From the NCBI GenBank assembly GCA_000004985.1, contig GG738876.1: a DNA stretch of 64,000 nucleotides, one strand, 5' to 3'. The stretch is from Naegleria gruberi (taxonomy: Eukaryota). Both the position numbers and the translations under genes were made by a program. The notes under the pieces are model-generated. The model worked only from the letters and a program-made list of their open reading frames with translations, was not told the DNA's origin and searched no databases. Positions 20,992 to 64,000 of the stretch are shown here, one piece after another. How positions within the stretch are numbered: the first letter of the stretch is position 1; each line of letters begins with the position of its first letter.

Positions 20992-21072
20992 TGCAGAAGG
21001 TGGGATTTGAACCCACGAAGCTTGCGCAGTAGAACTTGAGTCTACCCCCTTTGACCACTCGGGAACCCCTGC
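20992..21072 (-). tRNA. tRNA-Leu (anticodon CAA), intron-less, long variable arm
   Basis: Minus-strand GCAGGGGTTCCCGAGTGGTCAAAGGGGGTAGACTCAAGTTCTACTGCGCAAGCTTCGTGGGTTCAAATCCCACCTTCTGCA. 3-bp D stem, anticodon loop CT-CAA-GT, 12-nt variable arm, T-arm GTGGG-TTCAAAT-CCCAC. Confidence 0.8.
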
Positions 21073-23902: not shown

Positions 23903-24024
23903 NNNNNNNNNNNNNNNNNNNNNNNNNNNNNNNNNNNNNNNNNNNNNNNNNNCTGAAATTTTATTAATTTTATCTTTTTTTGCTTAATCATCATCATCCT
24001 AGGATGAAAATGCATAATTTATTA

Positions 24025-40069: not shown

Positions 40070-43000
40070 ATGGGAGCTGTGCGTTTAGAATCGAAAAAAA
40101 AAATGGCCGATAATCTTTCCACTGTCTCTGTTGCACGTGGAGGTGAGGATGATGGCACTGGTTTGATTGGTCAATTGCCGAATGAATTGATCAAACAAAT
40201 ATTTTACTATTGTAGTGGGAAGGAGGAAGTACAAAATTTAGCACTCACCAACAAGCTTTTATATTCAATTTTTGATGCCGAGATGGAATTGAATTTAGAT
40301 CGGCTAAGATTGGGATTTTTGAATGGAAGAGTAAAAAAGGAGAGTAGACTTTCACGTCTATTGGAGTTGTACAATTCTAATAATGGTGAAATGTTGACAT
40401 ATGACCAATACTTTGTGGATAAGAATTTAATGTACAAGGAGGCCTATACTGATAGAATTCAAGTACCTTCTCTGGATGCTGGTGATGAAGAAATTAATAG
40501 AGAGGATTTTATTAAGTCCATGCTATGTGATATTCCAGCCTCTCGTAATATGAAATTGAATGAAGATGATGAAGATAATGAGAAAGAAGATGAGGAAAAG
40601 GAGGATAAGGATAGTGATGAAGAGGAAGAAGCTCCAAAAAAGAAGAAACGAAAACTTTCTAAAAAAGCAAGGAAAAGATTTGACGATGAAGATATGAATG
40701 ATGACGAAGATGAAGAACAAGATGATGAAGAAGGGGATAGTGACGACGAAGAAGAAGCAAAAGTTGCCAAAGCAAAGAAAGGATTTGAAGCTAATACTCT
40801 CAATGAATTCAAGACTAGAATTAACAAATTGCTCAAGAAAAACACTTTGGCTGCAACAATTTCGAACATCATCTTTGAATTCAACAAGTCTTCCAATATC
40901 AAATTCATTATTGCAGGTGGTTTTGTGCTTCATTGCATTACTGGGTGTAGTTCATGTGATATTGATATTTTCTGTATCAATAATGGAGAAGATGACAAGA
41001 GTGTGGATATTGCTTTCAAGAAGGTTCTTGCTATCATTGAAAAGAAATTGAAAGAAGAATCTATCGAGTATAGAGTGTTGAAAACTAATGGTACACTCAA
41101 CATTATGCCTAAGATTAGTGGAGAACGAACAAAATTCCAAAACAAGTATCCAGACTCAAGCACACCAGATAATAAGTTGGGCGTTCAATTTGTTTTGAGA
41201 AGAGTTGCCTCTATTGAAGAGCTTATGTGTTTTTTCGATATTGACGCATGTAGATTTTCATTTGATGGTGAAAAGGTCTATACTATATTGGAAGGGTTAC
41301 GTGCTTTGCAGTACAATATGAATTTTATTGGAAGAGAACATATTTCAACTATTCTCTATTATGATAGAGCTATCAAGTATAGCAGAAGAGGCTTTGGAAC
41401 TTTCAGTGTTGACTTTCATCACCCACTCCAACACCGTTTGCACATTCAACCTTTTGTGACTTGGTTGAGAAAATTCTTTGGTGAACATTACTTTAATGAT
41501 GATCCACAAGTTATTGAAGATGATCCTTATTATTCAGGATATTCTAATTGGGATGAATATTCTCATTTAGCACCTTATATGTTTGTTCACATTTATGGCA
41601 ACGGAGACGAAGAACAAAATTATGGAAATAGAGATATTGATGAAGACAATTATTACACTGTCATTTTAAGAAGTGTAGACTATTGGTTGATTGACAAGTT
41701 TTGCAATCATCCAATCAGAACCGTTCTTTCTAGCTTGTGGGAATATTATTCAGATGGTAGATATATTAATGATTTAAAAAAGGTTAAAGTAGAGGATAAC
41801 GTAGACGGAGATGAGGAATTGATTGAATCAATTGCAACACACATTGAAAAGCATGATGTTCACTATTTTTGTAAAGACATTTCAGAATTGTTGCAAAAGA
41901 ACCAATCTATTTACATTACCGAGGGCTATTTAGATAGTCACTTGATGAAAAAGTACAAGTATTACAAGTGCTATATTTGTGGAAAGTATTCTCATATTAC
42001 AAAGAAGAAGAAGTGTGAAAATACAGATTTTTGTTCGGAATGTCACAAATTCAATGAGAGAGCCAAGTCACTCCGTAGAGATTTGAATGATAAGGTAGCC
42101 ATAGTAACAGGTGCTAGAGCCAAGATTGGTTATGAAACTGCCTTGTTATTGCTTAGAATGAAATGTACTGTTGCTGCTACTTCCAGATTTGCACACAATG
42201 CCTTTGACAAGTTCAAGTTAGAGAAGGATTTTAATGACTGGAAAGATAGATTACTTGTTTATCCATTAAATTTGAAAGATGGTAAATCAGTGATGGAATT
42301 TATTGAATTTATCAAGAAGAAATTCAAGCATATCGATATCATTATTAACAATGCAGCTCAAACCGTCCGAAGACCAGTCACTTATTATCAACCTCTTATT
42401 GAAATTGAATTGAAAAATTGTGATAGTCCTCTTCCTCTTTCCCTTCCAACTGAAAATAAGGATGTCAAGGAATTGCAAGTACTCAGCAATAATTTGATTG
42501 AACAAACCATTCGATGCACCAAAGAGACAAGTCTTCCTGAGGATTTATCTTACATACCAACTAGTGAGAAGGATAAGTTTGGAGAGTTTATTGATAAGAG
42601 AAAGCTCAACAGTTGGAATCAATCGTTGACTGATACTTCGACTATTGAATTGGTAGAGGCTCAAATGATTAACAATGTTGCTCCAACTCTTATTGTTTCA
42701 AATTTGCAGGGAGTCATGACACCTGACTATGATAAGGCTGATGGCGATAGTAATCCAAATGATTCTCTTGCATTGGGCTATTCTTTCATTATTAATGTGA
42801 GTTCTCACGAAGGTCAATTCAACACAACTGGAAAGACAGACAATCACATCCATACCAACACTTCCAAAGCATCATTGAACATGCTTACCAGATCTGGTGC
42901 TAATCAATTTGCCAAGAGTGGTATTTTGATGAATAGTGTTGATACTGGATGGGTTTCATCAGCAATCAAAACATTCAAAGATCCTGTACTAAATTGTGAA

Positions 43001-43090
43001 GATGCTGCCTACAGAATTTTATACCCAATCCTTTCAGGATCTTTGGATTATGGTAAATTGTACAAAGATTACAAAGTGGTAGATTGGTAA
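40070..43090 (+). CDS. Multidomain protein: F-box-like N-terminus, long acidic D/E tract, CCHC zinc knuckle, C-terminal short-chain dehydrogenase/reductase (SDR)-like domain
   Basis: LPNELIKQIFYYCSGKEEVQNLALTNKLLYSIF (F-box-like). About 100-aa D/E/K-rich tract. CYICGKYSHITKKKKC (CX2CX4HX4C). SDR Rossmann VAIVTGARAKIGYETA, NNAAQT, INVSSHEGQF...HTNTSKASLNML. The canonical YxxxK Tyr position appears substituted. 1006 aa. Confidence 0.6.
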   Translation: MGAVRLESKKKMADNLSTVSVARGGEDDGTGLIGQLPNELIKQIFYYCSGKEEVQNLALTNKLLYSIFDAEMELNLDRLRLGFLNGRVKKESRLSRLLELYNSNNGEMLTYDQYFVDKNLMYKEAYTDRIQVPSLDAGDEEINREDFIKSMLCDIPASRNMKLNEDDEDNEKEDEEKEDKDSDEEEEAPKKKKRKLSKKARKRFDDEDMNDDEDEEQDDEEGDSDDEEEAKVAKAKKGFEANTLNEFKTRINKLLKKNTLAATISNIIFEFNKSSNIKFIIAGGFVLHCITGCSSCDIDIFCINNGEDDKSVDIAFKKVLAIIEKKLKEESIEYRVLKTNGTLNIMPKISGERTKFQNKYPDSSTPDNKLGVQFVLRRVASIEELMCFFDIDACRFSFDGEKVYTILEGLRALQYNMNFIGREHISTILYYDRAIKYSRRGFGTFSVDFHHPLQHRLHIQPFVTWLRKFFGEHYFNDDPQVIEDDPYYSGYSNWDEYSHLAPYMFVHIYGNGDEEQNYGNRDIDEDNYYTVILRSVDYWLIDKFCNHPIRTVLSSLWEYYSDGRYINDLKKVKVEDNVDGDEELIESIATHIEKHDVHYFCKDISELLQKNQSIYITEGYLDSHLMKKYKYYKCYICGKYSHITKKKKCENTDFCSECHKFNERAKSLRRDLNDKVAIVTGARAKIGYETALLLLRMKCTVAATSRFAHNAFDKFKLEKDFNDWKDRLLVYPLNLKDGKSVMEFIEFIKKKFKHIDIIINNAAQTVRRPVTYYQPLIEIELKNCDSPLPLSLPTENKDVKELQVLSNNLIEQTIRCTKETSLPEDLSYIPTSEKDKFGEFIDKRKLNSWNQSLTDTSTIELVEAQMINNVAPTLIVSNLQGVMTPDYDKADGDSNPNDSLALGYSFIINVSSHEGQFNTTGKTDNHIHTNTSKASLNMLTRSGANQFAKSGILMNSVDTGWVSSAIKTFKDPVLNCEDAAYRILYPILSGSLDYGKLYKDYKVVDW

Positions 43091-44199: not shown

Positions 44200-45303
44200 T
44201 TAGCAGCTATTATGCTTAATAGATGATTGTTGTGTTAGACCATCCTTTGTAACTTTCCAAAACGAAAGAGTGTTGTCATATGCTCCAGCAACAAATCCTC
44301 CTCTTGGTGATTCTACAATATTCAAAATTCTATTATCTGTAATTTCATCACTGACCAACAATTCTTCACCTTCCTCTTTTGTAATGTCAAATACTCTAAT
44401 AGCATTATTTTCTGCTGCATTGTTTTTTGACATTGCCGAACCAATTAGCAAGTTTGAATATACCTTAGACCATACCAATCCAAATACTCGTGAATTGAGG
44501 TGTTTAATTTTCCTTATTAATTTGCCAGTTTCGGTTTCCCAAATGCAAATCTTTCCATCACCGACTCCACCACCACTTGCTAGCTTGGGTGATTGATAAT
44601 TATGAGACCAAGATAATGCCTTAACAGTGCTGTTATGCTTTTGAAGTCTGAATTCAGGTTGTTCAACATTGACTTTCCATATTTGGATTTCGTTATCTGA
44701 ACCTGAGCTAGCCAATTGTTGTCCATTTGGAGACCATTCTAAGCCGCAGATTTTTGCACAGTTACCTGCAACTGAACTAATTACTTCTCCAGAACGAATA
44801 TCATGAGTCATAATATTTCCAAAATTATCCGATCCTGATGAAATCAAGTGCTTTTGAACTGGATTCCAAGATATAACTGGCACTCTGTCCCTGTGTCCAC
44901 TAATTTGTCCAATTTTAATAGTCCTCTCAATGTCCCAAAGGTGAATTTGTCCAGAATTGAAACCTATGGCCAAAATGGATCCATCCTTGTTCCAGGAAAC
45001 GCTCGTAGTGATATCACTTTCTTGTTTCAATTCACAAACACTCCCCAAATTAGCATTCCACAAATTAACTGCCTTATCCTCCGTTGCTACAGCAAGTATA
45101 TTTCCTCCACTCCAACAAATATTATTCGTATAATAATCATTCACATAATCAGACTTCATCAAATTCCGATATTCAAACTTCATATGAAAACTTTTTTCCT
45201 TCATTTTCAATTGTAATAGTTTGAAACTTTCATTGTGAGAAGAAGGAAATGAATTGAAATCGGTGAGAGGGATGCAAGCAATGTTGGGGTTTGATTGATT
45301 CAT
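44200..45303 (-). CDS. WD40-repeat protein
   Basis: Multiple WD repeats (GQIHLWDIERTIKIGQISGHRDRVPVISWNP; IQIWKV; KICIWETETGK). 367 aa. Confidence 0.7.
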   Translation of the reverse strand: MNQSNPNIACIPLTDFNSFPSSHNESFKLLQLKMKEKSFHMKFEYRNLMKSDYVNDYYTNNICWSGGNILAVATEDKAVNLWNANLGSVCELKQESDITTSVSWNKDGSILAIGFNSGQIHLWDIERTIKIGQISGHRDRVPVISWNPVQKHLISSGSDNFGNIMTHDIRSGEVISSVAGNCAKICGLEWSPNGQQLASSGSDNEIQIWKVNVEQPEFRLQKHNSTVKALSWSHNYQSPKLASGGGVGDGKICIWETETGKLIRKIKHLNSRVFGLVWSKVYSNLLIGSAMSKNNAAENNAIRVFDITKEEGEELLVSDEITDNRILNIVESPRGGFVAGAYDNTLSFWKVTKDGLTQQSSIKHNSC

Positions 45304-45390: not shown

Positions 45391-48300
45391 TTATGTGAGA
45401 CCAAATGATTGAGTACCTTGTTCAATGGCTTGAATCAATTTTTCCTTCAAGGTTTCTCTATCTCTATAGCTTGGAAGTTTCAAAAGAGAGTAGCAAGTAC
45501 TGGAAGTTGGTAAACGAGAGGTGTCAGTCACTCTTTGAATACAAATCTTTGGGTGCATATCTTTAAATCCGAGCAGTGGTGGTCTTGAAATTGAACTAAT
45601 GAATTTGAGTAACAAGACGTGTTGTGAAGAGGTCAAATCATTAAAGACAACATCCCAAAACATTTGAATGGTTGGATGTTCTTGACTGTAACCACTTCCA
45701 TACTCTGTATTGGCATATAGGTCATCAATATCGATTGGACTATCACTTCCACAGATAATATCAATAAATTCATTTTCATCAAAAAGAGAAATCCATGATG
45801 AAGGTACAATTTCATTCAATCCCTTCATGAATGCATCTGATTGACTCTTAATTTGGTGGTTGAGCTTATAATTAGCAACTCTGAAAATAAAGGAGAGTTT
45901 GTTGCTGTCAGTCACTGCAATATTTTCACCATTTGGTATCAATTGTCTTGCAATTCTGCCAGATAATTCATCTCCATCCACAATAGTAAAATTCAATCCC
46001 AAATCTCCTGCATTATTATTATTTTTCAAAAAGAGCAAGTTACGATGTAATTCCTTGTCAAATGTAGCCAAATCATTAATTAAATCATTGTTGTTACCCT
46101 TCATTAATTTTGAAACGAAAAATTTGGCAAATGGTAAGTCAATAACAATGGCATCATAAATTGCCTTGCCTAATATCTTCCCCAAAAAGTTATAAAATCT
46201 CAAATCAAGACCATCTGGATAAATTATTGAGGAATTAGGATTTGGATATAAACGACCATCATCGGTTGCTTTGAAAAGTCCATAGCTATTGCTGAATGCA
46301 AGTTTGCTCAATTCGAACAAGTATTCTCTCAATGGGCCAAGGCCAATACCATCCTCTACAGTGTTATGTTGATCAATAAATTGCACTCTTACTCTTCCTT
46401 TCAATTGAAGAGGGGAAAGGTTGTTCAATTTGGCATAAGAATCCTCAAATATTTGTTCCCTTCTTATTCCAATAGGTTCTATGAAATGCTGTAAATCATA
46501 ACAATAGTCTCTATCCATTGCAATAACTTCCTTGAATATCTTTAATCTTATTTCTAAAGGTACTAAGAAGGGTAATTTCTCGATAAGCTCTTTCGTCTTG
46601 TTAAATGCCTGAGCCTCTTTGAATGATGATGTTTTTCTGGACATGGCTTCTCTTAAGGCTTGAATTCGTTGTAATCTGAGAGGAATATATTCCCCTGTAA
46701 CCATTGGAGAGTCATCATCAACCATTTCATCACCTCTAAATATAAACTCGGAAATCTTTTCAATATCAAGATTAGATGCCTCAGTTATAGTGAAATGATT
46801 CTTTGGACAAAAGTTTAGCCTAACATCTCTGTTGTGTAATTTGGTGAGTAAATCACAGAGGCCGGCTTTGAGTGTGAGTTTCGAATTATTCCACACCAAC
46901 TCAAAACATAAGGGAATGAGAAGTGCTGATATTTGAACATTTTCCTCCAATGAAAATGGTTTTGTCTTGAAGCTTTCATCATCCATAAAGGCAAGAATAT
47001 TGTCATATACTTTACAAAATAGAGCTAGAATTTCAATATTTTCCAACAGGTCATTCTTGATAGCACTCCACATTAATTTGACTAATTTAAAATCATCAGA
47101 ACAATAGGAAATAATATTCAATATGGTACTTGTATGTTTGCTTTCATCATGCATTAGGAAAAGAAAAATGTTTGAAAAGTCTACAAGACTTTCCTTATTT
47201 TCATCCACTGACAAAATAGCATCAATGATACGTTTGAGGTGAACACCTTTCATTAAGAGTTCGACTTGCTGCCTGATATCGGAAAGTGTTGAAAATTGTT
47301 CATCACTTTCTTCAGATACCACTGATTCATTTATGGAAATCAAATCAAAGTTCACTTGAGGCAAAATGGTAGCTACAATACGAAGATAATTAACAATGCT
47401 TTGAGGGGAGATCTTGTTCTCTTTCATGAATCCATGTACAAGCTCTATTAAATTTCCACAAAAATAGAGTCTTCTCTTACTTTCCTTCTCTTCTGATTTG
47501 AATTTTTCAATGACATCTTGAGGATTCAATTTGGAAAACAATGTATCAATATCAATCTGAAGAAGAGAACTTGTAGAAAAGTGTGTAAAAATGAATGGAA
47601 GAGAAAAGAGCTCCAACAAAAAAGACAGTGACAGCTGTGGATCAAATACACAACCTGACAATGTCAATCCCAATATGCTAGCAGCATAATTCTTTGATTT
47701 TTCTTGGTGATGTGTCACAAATTGATGAATAATTGAGATGATGTTACAGTCCTTTGTACAAATAATCTTTCCTAAAAACTTGGCAAAACTCAAGTCATTA
47801 GTGAAATACTTCCTATCAAGAAGGCAAGTTAGTGATTGTGTCGCAAGAATTAATCTCTTGTTTGATGAGAGATCCAACTCATTGTCGTTTGTTCTACTAA
47901 TAAAGTCCAATACTAATCGAGCTAATTTAGAATATTTGAAATGAGCAGCATCTTCAGAAATGATGGCGGAACTATTTCTTATTGTTCTTATCAGAAAATT
48001 CAAAATAATCAACAATCTGTTGAAATCCTTTTCATCTCGTTTAGGATTATAAAAATACAAGAGTTTGTTCAGTAGTTGTATAAATTTCGACAAATCCAAT
48101 CCTGATTTCATATATTGTTGTACCAATTCATCAAAGGCTAACCGTTGTCTATTTTTCTCCTTTCTACTATTCAAAAACTTTCTAGCAACCCTCACCAACA
48201 AGGCTCCTGATTGTTCTTCAAGCTTTGATTGCCGATTCCTCTCTCTTTCTCTTCTAGCATTTTCCAATATTTCCTCTCGGGATAAATTCTTTGATCCTCC

Positions 48301-48402
48301 CATGGAAACTTTCTTTCCACTTGCTCCACCACCAAAAGAAAAATTCATAGTGAAAGATAACAGCAATAGAAAAACGGAAAACACAACAGAAAGATTGAAC
48401 AA
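45391..48402 (-). CDS. HECT-domain E3 ubiquitin ligase, UBE3C/Hul5-like (N-terminal IQ-like basic helix)
   Basis: C-terminal HECT lobe ending LPTSSTCYSLLKLPSYRDRETLKEKLIQAIEQGTQSFGLT (catalytic Cys context). N-terminal ARRERERNRQSKLEEQSGALLVRVARKFLNSRKEKNRQ. 1003 aa, intron-less. Confidence 0.8.
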   Translation of the reverse strand: MFNLSVVFSVFLLLLSFTMNFSFGGGASGKKVSMGGSKNLSREEILENARRERERNRQSKLEEQSGALLVRVARKFLNSRKEKNRQRLAFDELVQQYMKSGLDLSKFIQLLNKLLYFYNPKRDEKDFNRLLIILNFLIRTIRNSSAIISEDAAHFKYSKLARLVLDFISRTNDNELDLSSNKRLILATQSLTCLLDRKYFTNDLSFAKFLGKIICTKDCNIISIIHQFVTHHQEKSKNYAASILGLTLSGCVFDPQLSLSFLLELFSLPFIFTHFSTSSLLQIDIDTLFSKLNPQDVIEKFKSEEKESKRRLYFCGNLIELVHGFMKENKISPQSIVNYLRIVATILPQVNFDLISINESVVSEESDEQFSTLSDIRQQVELLMKGVHLKRIIDAILSVDENKESLVDFSNIFLFLMHDESKHTSTILNIISYCSDDFKLVKLMWSAIKNDLLENIEILALFCKVYDNILAFMDDESFKTKPFSLEENVQISALLIPLCFELVWNNSKLTLKAGLCDLLTKLHNRDVRLNFCPKNHFTITEASNLDIEKISEFIFRGDEMVDDDSPMVTGEYIPLRLQRIQALREAMSRKTSSFKEAQAFNKTKELIEKLPFLVPLEIRLKIFKEVIAMDRDYCYDLQHFIEPIGIRREQIFEDSYAKLNNLSPLQLKGRVRVQFIDQHNTVEDGIGLGPLREYLFELSKLAFSNSYGLFKATDDGRLYPNPNSSIIYPDGLDLRFYNFLGKILGKAIYDAIVIDLPFAKFFVSKLMKGNNNDLINDLATFDKELHRNLLFLKNNNNAGDLGLNFTIVDGDELSGRIARQLIPNGENIAVTDSNKLSFIFRVANYKLNHQIKSQSDAFMKGLNEIVPSSWISLFDENEFIDIICGSDSPIDIDDLYANTEYGSGYSQEHPTIQMFWDVVFNDLTSSQHVLLLKFISSISRPPLLGFKDMHPKICIQRVTDTSRLPTSSTCYSLLKLPSYRDRETLKEKLIQAIEQGTQSFGLT

Positions 48403-48662: not shown

Positions 48663-50546
48663 TTGGTGTTCATCCTATCATTCACCCACCATCACCATAC
48701 AATAATATTATTTGTAGAAATTAATTTTAAAAAAATGTCATTACGCAATAATGCTTCATCTTCGTTACTTCAACTTCCGCCAGAAATAACTTTCAAAATA
48801 CTTGAATTTATTATTTCAGAAGAGTTCTACTGTTCGGATATTTGTGATCAAGATGAAACGAAACTAATGGAAATGATTCAGAGAAAAGTTGTTTCCAACA
48901 CTATTTATAATCTCTTTGAAGAATTAAAAGATTACCTATTAGTACATAGAGATTTATTTTACAATAATTTTATTAATATTCATTGTAATAGGCAGTTTCT
49001 AATAATTTGGAAAAGAATTCTCTATTCATTCGAATATCATTACAAAAAGGAATTTAAAAAAGAGTTTATTCTCGCTGATCAAGTTCTTTCATTAATTAGG
49101 GAATGTAAAACTGGAGATGAACTTTCTACCAAAAAATTAATAATTGCTGTGTTTTCAAGATTTAATAGTCCTGAATGCATATTAGAAACGTTCTTTAATG
49201 TGAAATGCTCTTCATCAAATTCAATTTTATATTTTAGTGGATATAATGGTATTCTTGGAGAATTGATGTGTAAGGATCATGATTGTGAGAATTGGAAGGA
49301 ACAGTTACATAAATTGGATCAGTTATTGATTCAATACCCTTCATTGACTCAGAATCCGAAATATTCAATGGTTATTATTCAAAAAATGTGTATTTTCTTA
49401 ATCTCAAAGCAAATCTATTCTAATATTATTCGAGCGACAAAGAAGAAACGAGATAAAACTTGGAAAAAGAAAGCTGAAATAATAGGTAATGTCTTTACTA
49501 TGATATTTAGTAAAGATTTCATAGTTGAAAATTCACTGTCCTCCTCTCAAATGCAATCATTAAGTATAGTTCTAGCGACTATTAAGGTTGTGTGCTCGAG
49601 TGATCTATTTGATAAGATATTTTCCAGGTGGATTCTTAATAGTTCGAATAGGTCATGTTACTTGAATAATTTACTGTTTACCAATACTTTCTCTGGCGAT
49701 TGCAAAAGATTTAAATATTGCATAATTGAATCATTTATAGTACATGGTCAGTTTAAAGAGCTTGAAAGGCTTATTGAAACGGTTTCCAAGCTCCCATCTC
49801 AGCCATCTAGTGTAATTTCCAGTACAATATCTGAAATACTGTCAATCTACTTTGATAAGATTGAATTGTTCCAATTAGAAGTAGAGAAATATACCCAACA
49901 AGTTATTGACCTAATATTAGCATGTTGGAATTTGAAAGCCAGTTTAAGAAATGAGGATGTTATTGATATTCTTCAGAGTTTGACAAGTACTGTATGTACA
50001 AAGGCGTTACAGGTGAAAGATGATAATTTCTTGGTAGAATTATTTGATAAGTTTTACTTCACATTATTCTCAAAAGAGTTTCTGTGTAATAGGCTAATAT
50101 TAATGGAGTCTATACTTCTCCAATCAAATATACTCTTACATGCAATTCAGAACGTTAGAATTTTTGAACATTTGATGAATAATGTTGGAAATCAGAACAC
50201 TTTCAAAAAGCAGTTGACCTGCATTTGTCAGGATTCAACCATCTATTCCAAGGTACTTTCCTTTTCTGTCAGTTATGAATCTACCTTTTATTTACATAAT
50301 GAAATTTACAAAATGAGAACAGAGAGTCCCTTCCATGATACTATTGAATTATTTGAGAAGAGATTGAGGGTAATTAAGAAATACCTTAACAACATTTCAA
50401 TTTTCAAAAACACTATCACTGATCAATCTTCAAAATTCAACGAAACTCTCGAACAGTATACTAGAAAACATAATAGTGAATGGAAAAAGAACATAGACAA
50501 ACTGAAAGGAATTATTACAATATTGAAGGATGAATTTTGTGATTAA
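48663..50546 (+). CDS. F-box-like domain protein (hypothetical)
   Basis: LLQLPPEITFKILEFIISEEF near the N-terminus (F-box-like). The rest is helical and has no recognised domain. 627 aa. Confidence 0.45.
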   Translation: MVFILSFTHHHHTIILFVEINFKKMSLRNNASSSLLQLPPEITFKILEFIISEEFYCSDICDQDETKLMEMIQRKVVSNTIYNLFEELKDYLLVHRDLFYNNFINIHCNRQFLIIWKRILYSFEYHYKKEFKKEFILADQVLSLIRECKTGDELSTKKLIIAVFSRFNSPECILETFFNVKCSSSNSILYFSGYNGILGELMCKDHDCENWKEQLHKLDQLLIQYPSLTQNPKYSMVIIQKMCIFLISKQIYSNIIRATKKKRDKTWKKKAEIIGNVFTMIFSKDFIVENSLSSSQMQSLSIVLATIKVVCSSDLFDKIFSRWILNSSNRSCYLNNLLFTNTFSGDCKRFKYCIIESFIVHGQFKELERLIETVSKLPSQPSSVISSTISEILSIYFDKIELFQLEVEKYTQQVIDLILACWNLKASLRNEDVIDILQSLTSTVCTKALQVKDDNFLVELFDKFYFTLFSKEFLCNRLILMESILLQSNILLHAIQNVRIFEHLMNNVGNQNTFKKQLTCICQDSTIYSKVLSFSVSYESTFYLHNEIYKMRTESPFHDTIELFEKRLRVIKKYLNNISIFKNTITDQSSKFNETLEQYTRKHNSEWKKNIDKLKGIITILKDEFCD

Positions 50547-50752: not shown

Positions 50753-53422
50753 TCAATCATTAATTTTGGAACATTTGTGCATTAGTAATTCAGCTGCCAC
50801 ATCATTGTTGAGTTCATGATATTCTTTGAAGAGTTCTTTTGCTTCGTCGAATTGATTTGAGAAGAAGAGTATGCAAGCTTGATTGTATTTGGTCCATTTG
50901 GCTTTCTTTTCCTTTTCTTTTAACTCATACATCCATTCTGTTAAAAAAGAATAGTTAAATATTTTAAATATTTTCAAAATTATTACTTACCATCCATGCC
51001 AACATGTAAACTTTCACCCAATTCATAAATGTGTGTTGGTTCTATTGGTGCTTTTTCATTATCTTTGTGTTGAATAAATGGTGATGAAAAGTATGTATCT
51101 AGGATCAATTCTGTCGTATAAACATATCTCATTTGATAATGTTTCTCTAAACTTGAAAATACTCTATCAGATAAAACAATATTCAAATTCATTTTTGATG
51201 CAATATTCAACATGGACTCCAAATTGAATCTAGCACTTGAAATAACTGTGAAGTTCTTAAAATCATTCGATCCTAAATTTCCACATAATGATTCTTGAAC
51301 ACAAATTGCAAATCTAAATTTTACAATTTCAATCAAATGAGGTTTCTTTTTCAAAATTTGATTTGGCCATTTCTTTGATTTGGTTGTATTTAGTTTTTCC
51401 ATTAATTGAACACATGTTGCAGCTGCTTTTTCTGAATGTTTTGACTGGTTTGAACTTGCATTGAATGAAATTGAAATTAAATCATTTTCAAAATTTCCCA
51501 AATATCCATTACTTGTTCGACAAACTAATCCCACATGATCAAAGAAATCTTTCAACAGGTCAACACAATCACCTGCTGATATTTCAGAGAATAATCTATT
51601 CAATCCTTCAATATGAATTGCAACAATGGATAATTTCTTTCTATCCAAGTGAAGTGAGAAAATGTCCAAATCATTCGAATATCTTCGATGTGAACTAGAG
51701 GTATGACTTCTACTCCAAGCGGATGCTTTTGAGGATTTATGATAGGAATCCATTGAAGCACCCTTCTTCTTTGAATCTTGGCCTCCATTGTTTTCATTGT
51801 TAGATCCTCCTTGATCTAATTGAGAAAGTAAATGTGATGGAATGAAAGCTCTGTAAAGTTTGATTCTGTCTGTCATGGTTTTGAAATGATTTTGTAACTG
51901 TTTCACTTCTGTAAACTTGGAATCATGAATTTCTAAATTATCCAAATCCATGTGAGAAACACTTTCGAATAAATCAATCAAATTGTAAAATGGTTTCACT
52001 AATCTGACTGAAATGAAGATGGAAATGGCTACACCTGTTGTGACAATGAATGTGGCACCAACAATAGCACAAATTACAGCAATAACAATTGACCTAATGT
52101 AATTCCATTGAGGAACTGCTAACACAAACAACCTATTTTGAACAATTATTATATCTAACTCGTTTAGGTTACTTACCAATCAACATCAGTATCTGTACAT
52201 AATCTGTAAATTGAAATGTAATCAGTTTCTGATGTAATTAAATACTTGGTATTGCATTTAATATTCAAACTAGTTCCATAGTGTTCTTCTAATAGGCGAG
52301 CAATAGCAGAAACTCTTTCATCATTATCAATCTTGAGAAAGGTCTGTCTTGTGACAGATCCATCTGAATTAACAACTGCAACTCTTGCATTAGAATTGTC
52401 ATCTTCAATATTGTAAACTATTTACCTTAATCATTGTACAACTTACTTGCAATCATATATTGAGTTGCCATTTCAATAATAAAACTTTTAGAACCAGTTA
52501 TTTTAGAAGTTGCATTCGCCAAATATTGAGAAATAGTTTCAGCAGACATGTCAATTGCCAGATAATACTTAAATTTGTTTCCTTTTGCATCTGGTTGAGT
52601 TAATGGCATTGAATTATACATGGTAATGAAAGTATACTGTGGTTGTGATGCATCTATGAAACTTAGAGACATGGTTGCTTTGTTGGGATGAGTATTTCCT
52701 GTAGTAATCATAACTGTCAAGTCAAAAAATCCTAATTGAATGTCAGGAATAGAACTTCTATTGCAATAGTCAAGTTCATCAAAGTTATTACAATAATAAA
52801 GTTGTTGATCCTTTGTGGTGATGTTGAATAAGGCTTGCTTGCCTCCCCAGTCCATAACTCCATATTGTCTTTAAGAAATTAAAGAAATATTGTAAAGCTT
52901 AAAACTTTTGTAAAGTATTTACCTTCCTTCATTGTCACCAATATTGCAAGTGACAACAACTCCTTTCATGTAACTCTTTTGTTGCTTATAAAACTGATAA
53001 ATCATCACTTCTATCTGATCTCTATCCGAAAAATCAAGTGATTTCAGCATTAAATGTTTGGCATTGTCGCTTGACATTGACACTTCTCTAATCAACTGTG
53101 CTACAAATGAAATAATATTATTAAACTCATAATCTCTCAATTCTGAACTATAAGAAACCACTGATGGCATAAAACTGCTCAACCATATTGCTGAAAGCAT
53201 TAAAACAGTCAACAATACAATTATTGAAATTATTAAAATTAGCCACATTTTAATCGAACCAAAGAATGCAATCTTTCTCTTGTCTTCGTTACTAAAAAGG
53301 CCATGTTCTTCCTTGGTGATCCACATTTGTAGAGTGGACAAGGAACTACCATTCTTTGGGTTTTCCTCAATCTCTCGCTCAATTTTTGTTTGAACGGGTG
53401 TGACTTGTTTCTTTTCTTTCAT
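50753..53422 (-). CDS. Sensor adenylate/guanylate cyclase, ACG-like: TM, extracellular sensor domain, TM, HAMP-like, class III cyclase domain, TPR-like tail; complement(join(50753..50937,50991..52132,52177..52417,52447..52868,52923..53422)), about 829 aa
   Basis: Five exons link track ORFs 52919-53422, 52427-52855, 50983-52179 and 50753-50977 plus an unlisted exon 52177-52417. Introns of 54, 29, 44 and 53 nt all start GTAAGT/GTAAAT and end AG with consistent phases. TM1 WLILIISIIVLLTVLMLSAIWL, TM2 IVIAVICAIVGATFIVTTGVAISIFISV. The cyclase-like block is LSIVAIHIEGLNRLFSEISAGDCVDLL...FAICVQESLCGNLGS. Confidence 0.6.
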
Positions 53423-54415: not shown

Positions 54416-56329
54416 ATGAAAACACTTGCTAACAAGGTTATTTCATCATCAATTATTACCGCTTCTCGAGGATCCTCTCTCAAGAATGGTTCTATTCTTG
54501 TTGGTGGTACTTTTAATACATTACCATTGATCAATATTGGAAAACATCATCCATCATTTTCAATAATTGAAATTGCTAGAAGAAATTATCATGCAACAAG
54601 TAGTAAAATGTTCTTTGATTTGAAAAAGGCCAAACAAGAAGCAGAGACTGTAGTTTATTCCGAACAAGAACAGAATGAATTGATCAAAAATTATCAACTA
54701 CTTGAGGACAAATTTCAGAGATTAACTGAGAATATTATTGAATATCGTAGAAATCATCCTACTCCTGTTCAATTAGAAACGAACCACTTATTTGTTCAAG
54801 TTTGTGATATTGTAAATTTTTGTTACAAAACCTTTCCGACAGGTAGTGCTCCAGTTAACATGCAAGTTAGATTCTTCAAATCAAATGTTGGAATGAAGTC
54901 ATATGTCTTGATGAAGAAGGTTGAGTTGTTAATGTTAAAGATTGTAAATCAAGAATGGTTCCCAGTTGAAACAATCAGAACTCAATTCCATGAGGAAAAT
55001 ATCATGGAATCCATTTCTGATGTTGTTCATCCTCCTGATACACCTATTGACGATACACTCTTCTTGTATGCTTCTTATAATACAGCCCTTTCTTATGCAG
55101 CTTTCATTCCAAAACTAAACATTAGAGATATGGTGAGACCAATCACAAAGGAAAATCTAATTGCTGCAACATTATTCTTGTTTAATCGATTGAAGGATTT
55201 TCCAGATTGGACCGATGAGTTTAGAGCTTATGTCGAGTGTGTCTTTTCAGATTATGAATCAGCCAAATTGGCTTATACTACTGCAAATCCAATTGAAAAT
55301 GAACCAGCTTTCCATTATAATGCTGATGATAATGCTTATTCTTACTTGGGAAAGACATTCACAGAGCACGAGTTTGATTGGTTCGAAGATATTGAAACAA
55401 ATATTCCAATTCATCTTGGAAATTTTATCAAAGCTGTGTCGGCTGCTGCTTATTTTGATGGAGATAGAAAGCAAAGTATTGATATTTTGGATGAATGTAT
55501 CAAAACTGATCCAAAGAATATTTATATTCACTATTTGAAGGCATCTTGTTTAAACAATCTCACTAGTTCAGAGTCAGACCTTAATATTGTTCGCAATAAT
55601 TACTCAGATGCTATTCATCATTTGGAGAAGGCATTGGCCTATCTTGAAAATATTCCAAAGTTGCCACTTCCTACTCTTGCAAAGACTAATTTTTCACACG
55701 AAATTGAAGAACCAGAAAAACAGGTTGAAAGAATTAACGATCTCAAATTCACACCAATTTGTTTATTATTGGCCAACGTGTATGCAAGAGCTGCTGAATC
55801 TGGAGTTTCAATAGATTTGCGACACATTTACGGTGCAAAGGGGGTCGATTATGTCAGACAAGTTGAATTATATTCAAGATCACCTAATGAGCCTTATTTG
55901 TATATGAGTAAGGGAGGTTGCTATTATGCTTGTGGTATGTATGAATTGGCAGTCAATGCCTATTCTTCTGTTGAAAGATTTGAAGCAGTTTTGGATCCAA
56001 ACGCCATCATTGACTCTCTTTGTTATGCTTCGAATGGAATGGTTGCTCTTGGGTATTCTGATAAGTGTTTGGAAGCAATGGAATTTTATATTGAAAAATA
56101 TAATAATGATGCGAGATTAGTTTTTCAAAAGATTCTCTGTAAAGAGTACATGTGTAGATCAAAGGATGAATTGAGACAGGTTTTGAAAGAATTCGAACAA
56201 TTAAAGGAGAGCATTCAAGATTTGAAACTCACTCCATGGATTTATTCAAGGGTTAACGAGCAAACCGATGCAAGAATTAACGATATTTTTGCAGCTATCA
56301 ACAATCCACAAATTGCTGAACGTTGGTAA
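54416..56329 (+). CDS. Hypothetical protein with TPR-like helical repeats; N-terminus resembles an organellar presequence
   Basis: 637-aa ORF. N-terminus MKTLANKVISSSIITASRGSSLKNGS is basic/hydroxylated and free of acidic residues. C-terminal helical-repeat-like segments (GGCYYACGMYELAVNAYSSVERFEAVLDPN). Last gene before the subtelomeric non-coding zone. Confidence 0.45.
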   Translation: MKTLANKVISSSIITASRGSSLKNGSILVGGTFNTLPLINIGKHHPSFSIIEIARRNYHATSSKMFFDLKKAKQEAETVVYSEQEQNELIKNYQLLEDKFQRLTENIIEYRRNHPTPVQLETNHLFVQVCDIVNFCYKTFPTGSAPVNMQVRFFKSNVGMKSYVLMKKVELLMLKIVNQEWFPVETIRTQFHEENIMESISDVVHPPDTPIDDTLFLYASYNTALSYAAFIPKLNIRDMVRPITKENLIAATLFLFNRLKDFPDWTDEFRAYVECVFSDYESAKLAYTTANPIENEPAFHYNADDNAYSYLGKTFTEHEFDWFEDIETNIPIHLGNFIKAVSAAAYFDGDRKQSIDILDECIKTDPKNIYIHYLKASCLNNLTSSESDLNIVRNNYSDAIHHLEKALAYLENIPKLPLPTLAKTNFSHEIEEPEKQVERINDLKFTPICLLLANVYARAAESGVSIDLRHIYGAKGVDYVRQVELYSRSPNEPYLYMSKGGCYYACGMYELAVNAYSSVERFEAVLDPNAIIDSLCYASNGMVALGYSDKCLEAMEFYIEKYNNDARLVFQKILCKEYMCRSKDELRQVLKEFEQLKESIQDLKLTPWIYSRVNEQTDARINDIFAAINNPQIAERW

Positions 56330-58580: not shown

Positions 58581-58753
58581 GGAATTTATTGGATTAACAG
58601 TAAATTTTGGAATTACTCTCCTATTGAAGATGGAACATCAGCAACATCACCAAGATGATCTTCAATTGGATAGTATTGTTTTCAGGAGTGGTTTCACGCT
58701 TTTTGTGGGCTCTTTCAACATACCATCATCAGAATGGTCATCATCTTGTTGAG

Positions 58754-61700
58754 NNNNNNNNNNNNNNNNNNNNNNNNNNNNNNNNNNNNNNNNNNNNNNN
58801 NNNNNNNNNNNNNNNNNNNNNNNNNNNNNNNNNNNNNNNNNNNNNNNNNNNNNNNNNNNNNNNNNNNNNNNNNNNNNNNNNNNNNNNNNNNNNNNNNNNN
58901 NNNNNNNNNNNNNNNNNNNNNNNNNNNNNNNNNNNNNNNNNNNNNNNNNNNNNNNNNNNNNNNNNNNNNNNNNNNNNNNNNNNNNNNNNNNNNNNNNNNN
59001 NNNNNNNNNNNNNNNNNNNNNNNNNNNNNNNNNNNNNNNNNNNNNNNNNNNNNNNNNNNNNNNNNNNNNNNNNNNNNNNNNNNNNNNNNNNNNNNNNNNN
59101 NNNNNNNNNNNNNNNNNNNNNNNNNNNNNNNNNNNNNNNNNNNNNNNNNNNNNNNNNNNNNNNNNNNNNNNNNNNNNNNNNNNNNNNNNNNNNNNNNNNN
59201 NNNNNNNNNNNNNNNNNNNNNNNNNNNNNNNNNNNNNNNNNNNNNNNNNNNNNNNNNNNNNNNNNNNNNNNNNNNNNNNNNNNNNNNNNNNNNNNNNNNN
59301 NNNNNNNNNNNNNNNNNNNNNNNNNNNNNNNNNNNNNNNNNNNNNNNNNNNNNNNNNNNNNNNNNNNNNNNNNNNNNNNNNNNNNNNNNNNNNNNNNNNN
59401 NNNNNNNNNNNNNNNNNNNNNNNNNNNNNNNNNNNNNNNNNNNNNNNNNNNNNNNNNNNNNNNNNNNNNNNNNNNNNNNNNNNNNNNNNNNNNNNNNNNN
59501 NNNNNNNNNNNNNNNNNNNNNNNNNNNNNNNNNNNNNNNNNNNNNNNNNNNNNNNNNNNNNNNNNNNNNNNNNNNNNNNNNNNNNNNNNNNNNNNNNNNN
59601 NNNNNNNNNNNNNNNNNNNNNNNNNNNNNNNNNNNNNNNNNNNNNNNNNNNNNNNNNNNNNNNNNNNNNNNNNNNNNNNNNNNNNNNNNNNNNNNNNNNN
59701 NNNNNNNNNNNNNNNNNNNNNNNNNNNNNNNNNNNNNNNNNNNNNNNNNNNNNNNNNNNNNNNNNNNNNNNNNNNNNNNNNNNNNNNNNNNNNNNNNNNN
59801 NNNNNNNNNNNNNNNNNNNNNNNNNNNNNNNNNNNNNNNNNNNNNNNNNNNNNNNNNNNNNNNNNNNNNNNNNNNNNNNNNNNNNNNNNNNNNNNNNNNN
59901 NNNNNNNNNNNNNNNNNNNNNNNNNNNNNNNNNNNNNNNNNNNNNNNNNNNNNNNNNNNNNNNNNNNNNNNNNNNNNNNNNNNNNNNNNNNNNNNNNNNN
60001 NNNNNNNNNNNNNNNNNNNNNNNNNNNNNNNNNNNNNNNNNNNNNNNNNNNNNNNNNNNNNNNNNNNNNNNNNNNNNNNNNNNNNNNNNNNNNNNNNNNN
60101 NNNNNNNNNNNNNNNNNNNNNNNNNNNNNNNNNNNNNNNNNNNNNNNNNNNNNNNNNNNNNNNNNNNNNNNNNNNNNNNNNNNNNNNNNNNNNNNNNNNN
60201 NNNNNNNNNNNNNNNNNNNNNNNNNNNNNNNNNNNNNNNNNNNNNNNNNNNNNNNNNNNNNNNNNNNNNNNNNNNNNNNNNNNNNNNNNNNNNNNNNNNN
60301 NNNNNNNNNNNNNNNNNNNNNNNNNNNNNNNNNNNNNNNNNNNNNNNNNNNNNNNNNNNNNNNNNNNNNNNNNNNNNNNNNNNNNNNNNNNNNNNNNNNN
60401 NNNNNNNNNNNNNNNNNNNNNNNNNNNNNNNNNNNNNNNNNNNNNNNNNNNNNNNNNNNNNNNNNNNNNNNNNNNNNNNNNNNNNNNNNNNNNNNNNNNN
60501 NNNNNNNNNNNNNNNNNNNNNNNNNNNNNNNNNNNNNNNNNNNNNNNNNNNNNNNNNNNNNNNNNNNNNNNNNNNNNNNNNNNNNNNNNNNNNNNNNNNN
60601 NNNNNNNNNNNNNNNNNNNNNNNNNNNNNNNNNNNNNNNNNNNNNNNNNNNNNNNNNNNNNNNNNNNNNNNNNNNNNNNNNNNNNNNNNNNNNNNNNNNN
60701 NNNNNNNNNNNNNNNNNNNNNNNNNNNNNNNNNNNNNNNNNNNNNNNNNNNNNNNNNNNNNNNNNNNNNNNNNNNNNNNNNNNNNNNNNNNNNNNNNNNN
60801 NNNNNNNNNNNNNNNNNNNNNNNNNNNNNNNNNNNNNNNNNNNNNNNNNNNNNNNNNNNNNNNNNNNNNNNNNNNNNNNNNNNNNNNNNNNNNNNNNNNN
60901 NNNNNNNNNNNNNNNNNNNNNNNNNNNNNNNNNNNNNNNNNNNNNNNNNNNNNNNNNNNNNNNNNNNNNNNNNNNNNNNNNNNNNNNNNNNNNNNNNNNN
61001 NNNNNNNNNNNNNNNNNNNNNNNNNNNNNNNNNNNNNNNNNNNNNNNNNNNNNNNNNNNNNNNNNNNNNNNNNNNNNNNNNNNNNNNNNNNNNNNNNNNN
61101 NNNNNNNNNNNNNNNNNNNNNNNNNNNNNNNNNNNNNNNNNNNNNNNNNNNNNNNNNNNNNNNNNNNNNNNNNNNNNNNNNNNNNNNNNNNNNNNNNNNN
61201 NNNNNNNNNNNNNNNNNNNNNNNNNNNNNNNNNNNNNNNNNNNNNNNNNNNNNNNNNNNNNNNNNNNNNNNNNNNNNNNNNNNNNNNNNNNNNNNNNNNN
61301 NNNNNNNNNNNNNNNNNNNNNNNNNNNNNNNNNNNNNNNNNNNNNNNNNNNNNNNNNNNNNNNNNNNNNNNNNNNNNNNNNNNNNNNNNNNNNNNNNNNN
61401 NNNNNNNNNNNNNNNNNNNNNNNNNNNNNNNNNNNNNNNNNNNNNNNNNNNNNNNNNNNNNNNNNNNNNNNNNNNNNNNNNNNNNNNNNNNNNNNNNNNN
61501 NNNNNNNNNNNNNNNNNNNNNNNNNNNNNNNNNNNNNNNNNNNNNNNNNNNNNNNNNNNNNNNNNNNNNNNNNNNNNNNNNNNNNNNNNNNNNNNNNNNN
61601 NNNNNNNNNNNNNNNNNNNNNNNNNNNNNNNNNNNNNNNNNNNNNNNNNNNNNNNNNNNNNNNNNNNNNNNNNNNNNNNNNNNNNNNNNNNNNNNNNNNN

Positions 61701-62899
61701 NNNNNNNNNNNNNNNNNNNNNNNNNNNNNNNNNNNNNNNNNNNNNNNNNNNNNNNNNNNNNNNNNNNNNNNNNNNNNNNNNNNNNNNNNNNNNNNNNNNN
61801 NNNNNNNNNNNNNNNNNNNNNNNNNNNNNNNNNNNNNNNNNNNNNNNNNNNNNNNNNNNNNNNNNNNNNNNNNNNNNNNNNNNNNNNNNNNNNNNNNNNN
61901 NNNNNNNNNNNNNNNNNNNNNNNNNNNNNNNNNNNNNNNNNNNNNNNNNNNNNNNNNNNNNNNNNNNNNNNNNNNNNNNNNNNNNNNNNNNNNNNNNNNN
62001 NNNNNNNNNNNNNNNNNNNNNNNNNNNNNNNNNNNNNNNNNNNNNNNNNNNNNNNNNNNNNNNNNNNNNNNNNNNNNNNNNNNNNNNNNNNNNNNNNNNN
62101 NNNNNNNNNNNNNNNNNNNNNNNNNNNNNNNNNNNNNNNNNNNNNNNNNNNNNNNNNNNNNNNNNNNNNNNNNNNNNNNNNNNNNNNNNNNNNNNNNNNN
62201 NNNNNNNNNNNNNNNNNNNNNNNNNNNNNNNNNNNNNNNNNNNNNNNNNNNNNNNNNNNNNNNNNNNNNNNNNNNNNNNNNNNNNNNNNNNNNNNNNNNN
62301 NNNNNNNNNNNNNNNNNNNNNNNNNNNNNNNNNNNNNNNNNNNNNNNNNNNNNNNNNNNNNNNNNNNNNNNNNNNNNNNNNNNNNNNNNNNNNNNNNNNN
62401 NNNNNNNNNNNNNNNNNNNNNNNNNNNNNNNNNNNNNNNNNNNNNNNNNNNNNNNNNNNNNNNNNNNNNNNNNNNNNNNNNNNNNNNNNNNNNNNNNNNN
62501 NNNNNNNNNNNNNNNNNNNNNNNNNNNNNNNNNNNNNNNNNNNNNNNNNNNNNNNNNNNNNNNNNNNNNNNNNNNNNNNNNNNNNNNNNNNNNNNNNNNN
62601 NNNNNNNNNNNNNNNNNNNNNNNNNNNNNNNNNNNNNNNNNNNNNNNNNNNNNNNNNNNNNNNNNNNNNNNNNNNNNNNNNNNNNNNNNNNNNNNNNNNN
62701 NNNNNNNNNNNNNNNNNNNNNNNNNNNNNNNNNNNNNNNNNNNNNNNNNNNNNNNNNNNNNNNNNNNNNNNNNNNNNNNNNNNNNNNNNNNNNNNNNNNN
62801 NNNNNNNNNNNNNNNNNNNNNNNNNNNNNNNNNNNNNNNNNNNNNNNNNNNNNNNNNNNNNNNNNNNNNNNNNNNNNNNNNNNNNNNNNNNNNNNNNNN
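58754..62899. other. Scaffold gap (4146 N) between subtelomere and terminal telomere-associated sequence
   Basis: Uninterrupted run of N. The giant six-frame ORFs spanning it are artefacts. Confidence 0.99.
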
Positions 62900-63600
62900 G
62901 AATTGATATGAAATTCAATACCAATTATTGAAATACCATGATTAATTGATCTATATATGATGCTATAATTGAAAGATTTTAAAATTAATATCATTTCATT
63001 ATCTTGATATTCATTATTCCCATGATTACACTCCTGACATGTTGAATGATATCAAATTGTCATGAAACTGATACAGTAGTGTTTATTCACCATTAGTAAG
63101 GTACTGTATCAATTTCATAATGATCTGTATAGTAGATGTCATTGTCTCATCCCTGTAGGTATCAAGTGGATCAGCCATGTACCATGAATGATATGGATGA
63201 TCTTCAAAATCATATAGATATATTTAATTATCATGTATAGATGTATTGGAAGTGAATTGAAGTGGTATAGATTTCTATCTTCAATGTTAGTATAGGTCAG
63301 TTGACAAGTTGAATAGTTAATTTCCTTAGATGATTCCACAGTACCTGAAATTGATACATGTTGTTACCAACATGATTTATAAGGTGATATATTGATTTGA
63401 ATTGATTTTGAAATGTTTTCATTGATATTCTAATTGTCTAATCTATTATATGAAATTAACTTATATAAGTCATTATAATGATGTAATATTATGTTATAAT
63501 ATGATTATATATTCAATTTGGAGTATATTGATATATAATATATTGATTTATAATGAGTATTTATTGAGATAATCAATTAAGATGACTAAAAATCAAAATG

Positions 63601-64000
63601 TTGGGTTTGGGTTTGGGGTTGGGTTTGGGTTTGGGTTTGGGTTTGGGTTTGGGTTTGGGTTTGGGTTTGGGTTTGGGTTTGGGTTTGGGTTTGGGTTTGG
63701 GTTTGGGTTTGGGTTTGGGTTTGGGTTTGGGTTTGGGTTTGGGTTTGGGTTTGGGTTTGGGTTTGGGTTTGGGTTTGGGTTTGGGTTTGGGTTTGGGTTT
63801 GGGTTTGGGTTTGGGTTTGGGTTTGGGTTTGGGTTTGGGTTTGGGTTTGGGTTTGGGTTTGGGTTTGGGTTTGGGTTTGGGTTTGGGTTTGGGTTTGGGT
63901 TTGGGTTTGGGTTTGGGTTTGGGTTGGGTTTGGGTTTGGGTTTGGGTTTGGGTTTGGGTTTGGGTTTGGGTTTGGGTTTGGGTTTGGGTTTGGGTTTGGC
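63601..64000 (+). repeat. Telomere repeat array (TTTGGG)n with occasional TTGGG/TTTGGGG variants, about 65 units, G-rich strand 5'->3' toward the window end (right chromosome terminus)
   Basis: Direct reading. The array begins after the unique junction ...GAGATAATCAATTAAGATGACTAAAAATCAAAATG and runs to the last base of the window. Confidence 0.9.

Follow-up and report, generated by a model that had tools for sequence, protein, structure and literature searches.

The question raised by the stretch of Naegleria gruberi DNA analysed here, 64,000 nucleotides of contig GG738876.1 (assembly GCA_000004985.1) that will be referred to as the window, is whether the gene at 50753-53422 on its minus strand encodes a working sensor cyclase. 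From the letters and the open reading frames (ORFs) of the window, a sequence-only reading had joined four listed ORFs and one hidden exon into a five-exon gene for a receptor carrying a class III nucleotide cyclase catalytic domain, with the topology of the osmosensing adenylate cyclase G (ACG) of dictyostelids. The explanation preferred here, with a probability put at roughly 60%, is that the gene encodes a receptor with a dCache-type extracellular domain and a HAMP-type relay, in which the output domain is a non-catalytic pseudo-cyclase, and that it derives from active dCache-HAMP cyclases of bacterial type. Residue numbers are those of the 824 amino acid (aa) product, and all coordinates given within the gene are on the minus strand.

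The output domain, a class III cyclase-homology domain (CHD), occupies aa 536-725 (51675-51106). Its fold was found by sequence searches and is present, as an alpha/beta CHD, in structure models; these and the models described below were made for two Naegleria orthologues (P0001 and P0003), not for the spliced window protein. The sequence-only reading had looked to a match with the Pfam family PF00211, yet the window protein gives none even at E<=10. Indeed, none of its 13 closest relatives reaches the PF00211 gathering score, the best E-value being 4.9e-4, and P0003, with 14 bits, falls short of the cut-off of 21.9.

The catalytic positions were placed by three independent alignments, made with phmmer, with a profile hmmsearch, and with MAFFT, the last of which also took in two solved enzymes and 20 bacterial relatives. 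Three of the six canonical catalytic residues (the first metal-binding Asp, the substrate Lys, and the transition-state Arg) are replaced. His556 (51613..51615) stands in place of the first metal-binding Asp, with the motif FSDIxGFT changed to AIHIEGLN. In the segment N596-F-E-N-D600 (51481..51495), where DKFVGD is changed to GNFEND, Asn596 replaces the substrate Lys and the second metal Asp is kept as Asp600. In the segment N686-L-E-S-M690 (51211..51225), Met690 takes the place of the transition-state Arg, or Ser689 does so in the ungapped register. The Thr position of class IIIb enzymes is retained as Thr678, and the transition-state Asn is retained as Asn686 only when a one-residue insertion is allowed. 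At the columns concerned, all 20 of the bacterial relatives carry D, K, D, N, and R. Set against the class IIIb cyclases of Pseudomonas aeruginosa (CyaB, 3r5g), Spirulina (CyaC, 1wc0), and Synechocystis (Cya2, 2w01), the window CHD has replacements at the first metal Asp, the substrate Lys, and the transition-state Arg and in the GFT phosphate loop, and the protein adds a long linker upstream of the domain and a TPR-like tail downstream of it. Of the catalytic domain originally described, then, the fold is there and the full set of canonical residues is not.

Class III cyclases have an established two-metal mechanism and work as dimers, with composite sites assembled from complementary halves. 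Since residues have been lost from both of the complementary halves, the CHD would be unable to form a complete canonical site, whether in a homodimer or with a canonical partner, and it probably no longer makes cyclic AMP or cyclic GMP.

The closest proteins to that of the window are the N. gruberi predicted protein P0001 (772 aa), which is 85-92% identical over the aligned exons and 88-92% identical over exons 3-5, and its paralogue P0002, followed by proteins of N. lovaniensis (C9374_004049, P0003; 50%) and N. fowleri (FDP41_001066, P0004; 38%). All four are of the same family, with the same architecture and the same degenerate catalytic positions, and no database protein is identical to the window protein. 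A word-indexed search found 13 relatives, after which came bacterial cyclases matching the cyclase domain alone. With an exhaustive profile search the number rose to 166 cluster representatives at E<=1e-30, and many of these span the whole profile. The named members are from N. gruberi, N. lovaniensis, N. fowleri, Willaertia magna, and Percolomonas, the remainder being from environmental contigs, and all of the named full-length relatives found belong to Heterolobosea. There are long forms with about 390 aa of N-terminal ankyrin repeats, seen in 12 of 39 members scanned (for example P0089 and P0096, from environmental contigs), and one member, P0161, carries instead a bacterial solute-binding-protein domain and a C-terminal SAM domain.

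Of 137 family representatives, only 3 still have the first Asp, 5 have the Lys, and 47 have the second Asp. Out of five canonical residues, 129 of these proteins retain no more than two, and P0132 of Willaertia alone has all five. The position of the first Asp is most often occupied by K, R, or H, with Y, L, and V also seen in paralogues. The family-wide loss of the first metal Asp, the Lys, and the Arg makes it doubtful that the domain should be named a cyclase. No account of this family or of its degeneracy was found in the literature on Naegleria cyclases and on inactive cyclase-homology domains.

The segments of the protein are not conserved to the same extent. Within Naegleria, pairwise identity is highest, at 76%, in a motif that resembles the transducer element of cyclases, which is thus the most conserved segment of the family. 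Identity is 54% in the HAMP segment and 42-44% in the transmembrane (TM) helices, falls to 38% in the CHD, 35% in the tail, and 32-33% in the ectodomain, and is lowest, at 19%, in the linker. The helices concerned with transmembrane signalling are intact and under strong constraint. Among 39 diverse members, little or no variation is seen at a Pro and a Glu of the HAMP segment, the F-x-P of the transducer motif, the G-N-x-G in the core of the CHD, a single Arg that follows the CHD, the Trp of a DEW motif, and one Asp in the tail.

The cyclase transducer element (CTE) of class IIIa and IIIb cyclases is a short conserved helix directly N-terminal to the catalytic domain. The corresponding motif of the window protein, RIKLYRAFIPSHLLSQL (aa 471-489; 51870-51814), shows a hydrophobic-x-Pro-x-x-hydrophobic pattern; the comparison was made with the general CTE consensus and not through a profile search. 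Between this motif and the CHD lies a Ser-rich disordered linker of 46 aa (aa 490-535; 51813-51676), for which the predicted local distance difference test score (pLDDT) is below 50 in the models of both orthologues. In 89 representatives the spacer between the motif and the CHD is 38-156 aa long, with a median of 66, as compared with approximately 13-16 aa in the two canonical relatives examined. The insertion of the linker accompanies the loss of the catalytic residues.

It might be argued that the protein is an active adenylate or guanylate cyclase after all, regulated by a ligand or by osmolarity in the manner of ACG or of bacterial sensor cyclases, and with a cyclic nucleotide as its output. 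It has a class III fold, and HAMP-like and transducer-like elements are typical of regulated cyclases. Asp600, Arg656, Thr678, and Asn686 are retained, UniRef labels the orthologues "Guanylate cyclase domain-containing protein", and some active class III cyclases, from mycobacteria, tolerate non-canonical substrate-specifying residues. Yet the first metal Asp is His here and K, R, Y, L, or V in paralogues, the Lys is Asn, and the Arg is absent in either register, and to our knowledge there is no active class III cyclase that lacks the first metal Asp. The lack of a PF00211 match, a CHD that is less conserved than the HAMP segment, and a long disordered linker that breaks the helix normally coupling the transducer element to the catalytic domain also speak against activity. 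An active cyclase is therefore held to be decidedly improbable.

The receptor part of the protein follows the order of modules that had been proposed, a cytosolic stub, TM1, the ectodomain, TM2, a HAMP-like segment, a class III cyclase fold, and a short TPR-like tail, and all of these were recovered. The stub (aa 1-57) is basic and poorly conserved. TM1 (aa 58-81) has a hydropathy peak of 3.14 at aa 61-79, preceded by a K/R-rich stretch, and TM2 is at aa 387-420 (52122-52021). These are the only strongly hydrophobic segments, the limits of the second being approximate, and basic residues lie on their cytosolic sides. The loop between them (aa 82-386) is about 305 aa long by hydropathy, rather than the approximately 250 aa first estimated. 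It carries conserved cysteines and NxS/T sequons, which fits an extracellular location. In the orthologue models, the ectodomain is a long N-terminal helix followed by two PAS-like alpha/beta modules between the TM helices, which is the arrangement of dCache_1 domains. The Pfam dCache_1 and PDC profiles have no matches in the window protein or in the Naegleria members, but among the 39 diverse family members 2 match dCache_1 (best E 3e-6) and 5 match MCP-like_PDC_1 (best E 6.6e-5). The bacterial dCache_1 domains of PctD (7prq), McpU (6f9g), McpX (6d8v), PscC (6mni), PctA (9koo), and TlpC (5wbf) are only 7-13% identical to this ectodomain, which differs from them also in its eukaryotic host, its conserved cysteines, its glycosylation sequons, and the silence of Pfam dCache_1 on the window protein.

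After TM2, at aa 421-470 (52020-51871), come the helices that had been called HAMP-like, a putative element of the four-helix-bundle type. In support of this, aa 384-477 match the TM2-HAMP parts of the NCBIfam NarQ, PorY, and NarX models, although weakly (E 2.4e-5), and a helix-loop-helix follows TM2 in both orthologue models. The 77 aa HAMP segment has no phmmer match in the PDB, and the segment is named HAMP-like only, because the Pfam HAMP profile does not match it.

At the other end of the protein, the conserved helical tail (aa 763-824), which starts with DEWMYEL, falls below the Pfam threshold for TPR_2 (E 0.028; 15 bits, the cut-off being 27). It weakly matches designed TPR proteins (E 0.4-2), the tail of the distant member P0079 matches Fis1_TPR_C (E 2.4e-4), and in the model of P0001, which is 92% identical to the window protein there, the tail forms four helices with a pLDDT of 82-87.

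If the protein is a receptor with a pseudo-cyclase output, a ligand would bind to the extracellular dCache domain and the signal would be relayed through TM2 and the HAMP segment, by analogy with bacterial chemoreceptors and HAMP-cyclases. The CHD would no longer cyclise ATP or GTP but would act as a dimeric scaffold or a nucleotide-binding module. Together with the TPR-like tail and a Ser-rich linker that is probably phosphorylatable, it would pass the signal to partner proteins. A broader proposal, made more tentatively and with rather less than even confidence, is that this is a large and partly subtelomeric heterolobosean family of dCache chemoreceptor-like proteins of bacterial type in which the cyclase domain now signals without catalysis, whether by sensing nucleotides, by serving as a scaffold, or by inhibiting canonical cyclases under the control of a ligand.

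Several points weigh against the preferred explanation. The ectodomain fold was modelled on orthologues that are 50% and about 90% identical to the window protein, from a shallow alignment of 13 sequences and with a mean pLDDT of 65-68, and neither Pfam HAMP nor Pfam dCache_1 matches the window protein in a Pfam scan. The CHD still has Asp600, the Thr at position 678, and probably Asn686, the register of Asn686 and Met690 shifts by one residue between the HMMER alignments and the MAFFT alignment with its column statistics, and the domain may have an unusual catalytic arrangement.

The origin of the family in active dCache-HAMP cyclases is suggested by the fact that active-type relatives persist in the same lineage. 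In the case of W. magna ABK040_003823 (P0132), the ectodomain type, the transducer motif, and the TPR-like tail are shared with the window protein, but the canonical residues are all present and PF00211 is matched with 71.7 bits. That this canonical protein also has the tail would mean that the TPR-like tail predates the loss of the catalytic residues. The second case is a gene of N. lovaniensis (2949-4433 of the contig sequence PYSW02000001.1, referred to as L001) that shares the DW-TM-HAMP-transducer layout and has the canonical residues, within FTDIANFT, DKFIGD, and NTASRLE; it passes PF00211 as well. This gene is on the same strand as the degenerate N. lovaniensis orthologue and 1.5 kb upstream of it, its model looks truncated at the N-terminus, and it has no equivalent in the window.

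The proximity of these two N. lovaniensis genes, which are similarly built, bears on another explanation, that the protein is a regulatory subunit that forms heterodimers with a canonical Naegleria CHD, either making the activity of its partner ligand-dependent or poisoning it as a dominant negative. Class III heterodimers in which one half is degenerate are known from the mammalian C1/C2 pair and from soluble guanylate cyclase. A precedent is also provided by the rhodopsin-cyclase heterodimers of fungi, in which the NeoR subunit has neither a canonical transducer element nor the metal-binding and base-binding residues (PMC10622942). Yet with the first Asp lost on one side and the Lys and Arg on the other, such a heterodimer would have no fully canonical site. 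Neither a second copy of the family nor a canonical cyclase gene was found when these were looked for in the 64 kb window, and when the flanks were compared with N. lovaniensis only the receptor gene matched, so that the flanks are not syntenic. A heterodimerising subunit is considered unlikely.

Of the systems that are already described, ACG has a CHASE domain and an active cyclase domain and has been reported only from dictyostelids (PMC4399386). The window protein resembles it in that TM helices flank the ectodomain and the class III domain is cytosolic, and this part of the proposed ACG-like topology stands. The CHASE sensor and the catalytic residues do not: the ectodomain is dCache-like, the CHD has degenerated, and HAMP-like, linker, and TPR-like parts are present in addition, so that the protein fails as a member of the ACG group both on the type of its ectodomain and on its catalytic residues. 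The resemblance is to the general topology of receptor cyclases only, given that there is no PF00211 match, that the residues are lost, that the named full-length relatives are heterolobosean, and that ACG is reported from dictyostelids only. Degenerate or non-catalytic class III domains occur in a "class III adenylyl cyclase-like ATP-binding protein" of P. aeruginosa (6yii) and in the fungal CcNeoR4, but these have differing input domains and are of other lineages, and neither is a dCache-HAMP receptor or belongs to a large paralogous family. What is known is thus the plan of the sensor-cyclase type of receptor, and what is new is a degenerate dCache-HAMP variant of it, not a new kind of system.

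All of the above depends upon the gene model, which is borne out as a five-exon gene on the minus strand with its ATG at 53422 and its TGA at 50755-50753. A three-frame translation gives five open segments on this strand, with phases that match across all of the junctions. When the five pieces originally proposed are joined, they give 2490 nt and 829 aa with no internal stops and with all four introns GT..AG, and the joined product matches Naegleria proteins at E=0, which argues that the reconstruction is not a chance assembly.

Exon 1 (52923..53422, 500 nt) carries the start codon, the cytosolic stub, TM1, a stalk helix, and the first part of the ectodomain. It is based on the reading frame, on the donor GGAAG/GTAAAT (the slash marking the junction), and on an intron at the same codon in N. 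lovaniensis. The stub has a 12 aa insertion relative to P0001 and P0002, but an extra intron in exon 1 was rejected, since the sole GT..AG candidate there, of 58 nt, would break the frame. Intron 1 (52869..52922, 54 nt, phase 2) runs from GTAAAT to AAAG, and its position is kept in L001, where a 130 nt intron follows ...GDNMGR/QYG. Exon 2 (52447..52868, 422 nt) encodes the membrane-distal module of the dCache-like ectodomain, with the conserved Cys pair C193/C202 and the sequons NIT and NRS, and is 65% identical to an N. lovaniensis counterpart that is also of 422 nt. Its first 36 residues are missing from the public models P0001 and P0002 but are present in P0003-P0009, and the start predicted for this exon in the sequence-only reading is the better one when compared with these two public N. 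gruberi models.

The one junction for which a change is preferred is at intron 2. The exon that follows had been placed at 52177-52417, which would make the intron 29 nt long (52418-52446). A second acceptor 15 nt further downstream is also in frame, giving ...YMIA/NDNSNARV... and an intron of 44 nt (52403..52446; GTAAGT...TTGAAG). The 44 nt version aligns without a gap to P0002 of N. gruberi, P0003 of N. lovaniensis, and P0004 of N. fowleri, and the N. lovaniensis exon 3 starts at the same codon, AG/ATGACA, as it does in this version. An intron of 29 nt would be by far the shortest in the gene, the others being 44, 53, and 54 nt. Intron 2 is therefore probably 44 nt (52446-52403), from which it follows that exon 3 is 52402-52177, the reading frame 2475 nt, and the product 824 aa; the figure of 829 aa is correct for the junctions as first drawn.

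Exon 3 (52177..52402, 226 nt) encodes the membrane-proximal module of the ectodomain and is 88% identical to P0001. Of its original span, the exon itself and the end at 52177 are retained and the start is moved to 52402. That it could not be seen in the list of ORFs holds as well: the segment, which is conserved across all of the homologues, lies within a stop-to-stop stretch (52421-52176) of 82 codons with no usable start codon, which is why the list, limited to ORFs of at least 40 aa, has no entry at this place. Intron 3 (52133..52176, 44 nt, phase 2; GTAAGT...AATAG), once removed, leaves ...TDVDW/LFVLAVPQW, which is gap-free against all of the homologues. The listed ORF start at 52179 had been said to lie at an intron/exon boundary, and indeed the TTG at 52179-52177 is formed by the last three bases of exon 3, with the first 15 codons of that ORF (50983..52179, 398 aa) being intron 3 read through.

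Exon 4 (50991..52132, 1142 nt) encodes the end of the ectodomain, TM2, the HAMP-like helices, the transducer-like motif, the linker, and the CHD. Intron 4 (50938..50990, 53 nt, phase 1; GTAAGT...AACAG) gives the junction ...GMD/EWMYEL, which restores the near-invariant family motif DEWMYEL, and exon 5 (50753..50937, 185 nt including the TGA) encodes the tail. Introns 1 and 2 interrupt the same codons in the N. lovaniensis orthologue, in which introns 3 and 4 are absent.

The public models differ from the window gene: the 36 aa at the start of exon 2 are missing from P0001 and P0002, and the tail is missing from P0003. Reference annotation therefore appears to mis-model the family systematically, with exon errors in both the N. 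gruberi and the N. lovaniensis models. P0001 uses a third and more distal acceptor for intron 2 (...YMIA/IAVVNSDG), and the stretches of the window affected by the differences are 52868-52761 and 52446-52382. P0003 ends at ...WVQVHKFK, and the tail (HIYELG... and DEWLYEV...KWTKYNQAC...) is encoded downstream of this end at 8415-8745 of L001, in two other frames. The frame shifts in the N. lovaniensis tail are either indels of the assembly or true disruptions of the frame.

These disruptions before the tail, together with the lost catalytic residues and a location some 10 kb away from an array of telomere-like (TTTGGG)n repeats, are what might be expected if the window gene were a decaying and functionless copy in a fast-evolving subtelomeric region. 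However, its five exons, joined at canonical splice sites, form an unbroken frame of 2475 nt, its identity to P0001 is 85-92%, and the HAMP, transducer, and tail motifs are strongly conserved. More than 100 cluster representatives from different genera share the same degenerate residues, which points to long-term retention after the loss, and decay is a very remote explanation.

Naegleria is known for an exceptionally large number of cyclases, of which a pangenome study counted at least 81 (PMC9928731). Such proteins are usually counted as sensors that produce cyclic AMP or cyclic GMP, and should a sizeable subfamily be catalytically dead, these counts would overstate the capacity for cyclic-nucleotide signalling and hide another class of receptor. 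This would be a eukaryotic class of pseudo-cyclase receptors, analogous to the pseudokinase receptors. The dCache domain is the commonest type of extracellular sensor in bacteria. Only one Cache-containing protein, an adenylate cyclase of bacterial type, was reported from Naegleria when Cache domains were surveyed with sequence profiles (PMC4822843), whereas the present family, if correctly interpreted, would amount to dozens of Cache-type extracellular sensors. This suggests that there are many more dCache-like sensors in Naegleria than profiles detect. The natural series from active (Willaertia P0132 and the N. lovaniensis neighbour) to degenerate members would be useful for studying how an enzyme-coupled receptor turns into a pseudoenzyme receptor, and in practical terms a corrected gene model is obtained for the locus.

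The surroundings of the gene are AT-rich eukaryotic DNA, the window being approximately 33% GC. An array of telomere-like TTGGGT/TTTGGG repeats (66.7 copies, 98% matches) occupies 63601-63999, up to the window's end, its G-rich strand pointing outward 5' to 3'. The window would therefore reach the end of a chromosome or scaffold, making the receptor gene, about 10 kb away, subtelomeric, a setting that fits a fast-expanding family of receptors. Runs of N at 58754-62899 (4146 bases), 19655-19704 (50), and 23903-23952 (50) are assembly gaps, the first of which, of 4.1 kb, separates the receptor gene from the array. Four ORFs of 1390-1420 aa at 58655-62994 are artefacts of this long run.

The flanking genes are ordinary eukaryotic genes with no evident functional link to the receptor gene. 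Immediately downstream of it is a 603 aa ORF with no Pfam match (48735-50546, plus strand), and upstream is a protein with weak TPR matches (54416-56329, plus strand). Further away are a HECT-domain ubiquitin ligase (45391-48402, minus strand; E 5e-88), a 1006 aa ORF that includes a short-chain dehydrogenase domain as a fusion (40070-43090, plus strand), and a single-exon CDC20/Fizzy WD40 ORF (44200-45303, minus strand). The best match of the last of these is a 98% identical protein of an ENA contig, and its next matches, from plants, animals, and metagenomes, are 36-38% identical. The window also carries tRNA-Asp(GTC) at 14520-14590 on the plus strand and tRNA-Leu(CAA) at 20992-21072 on the minus strand.

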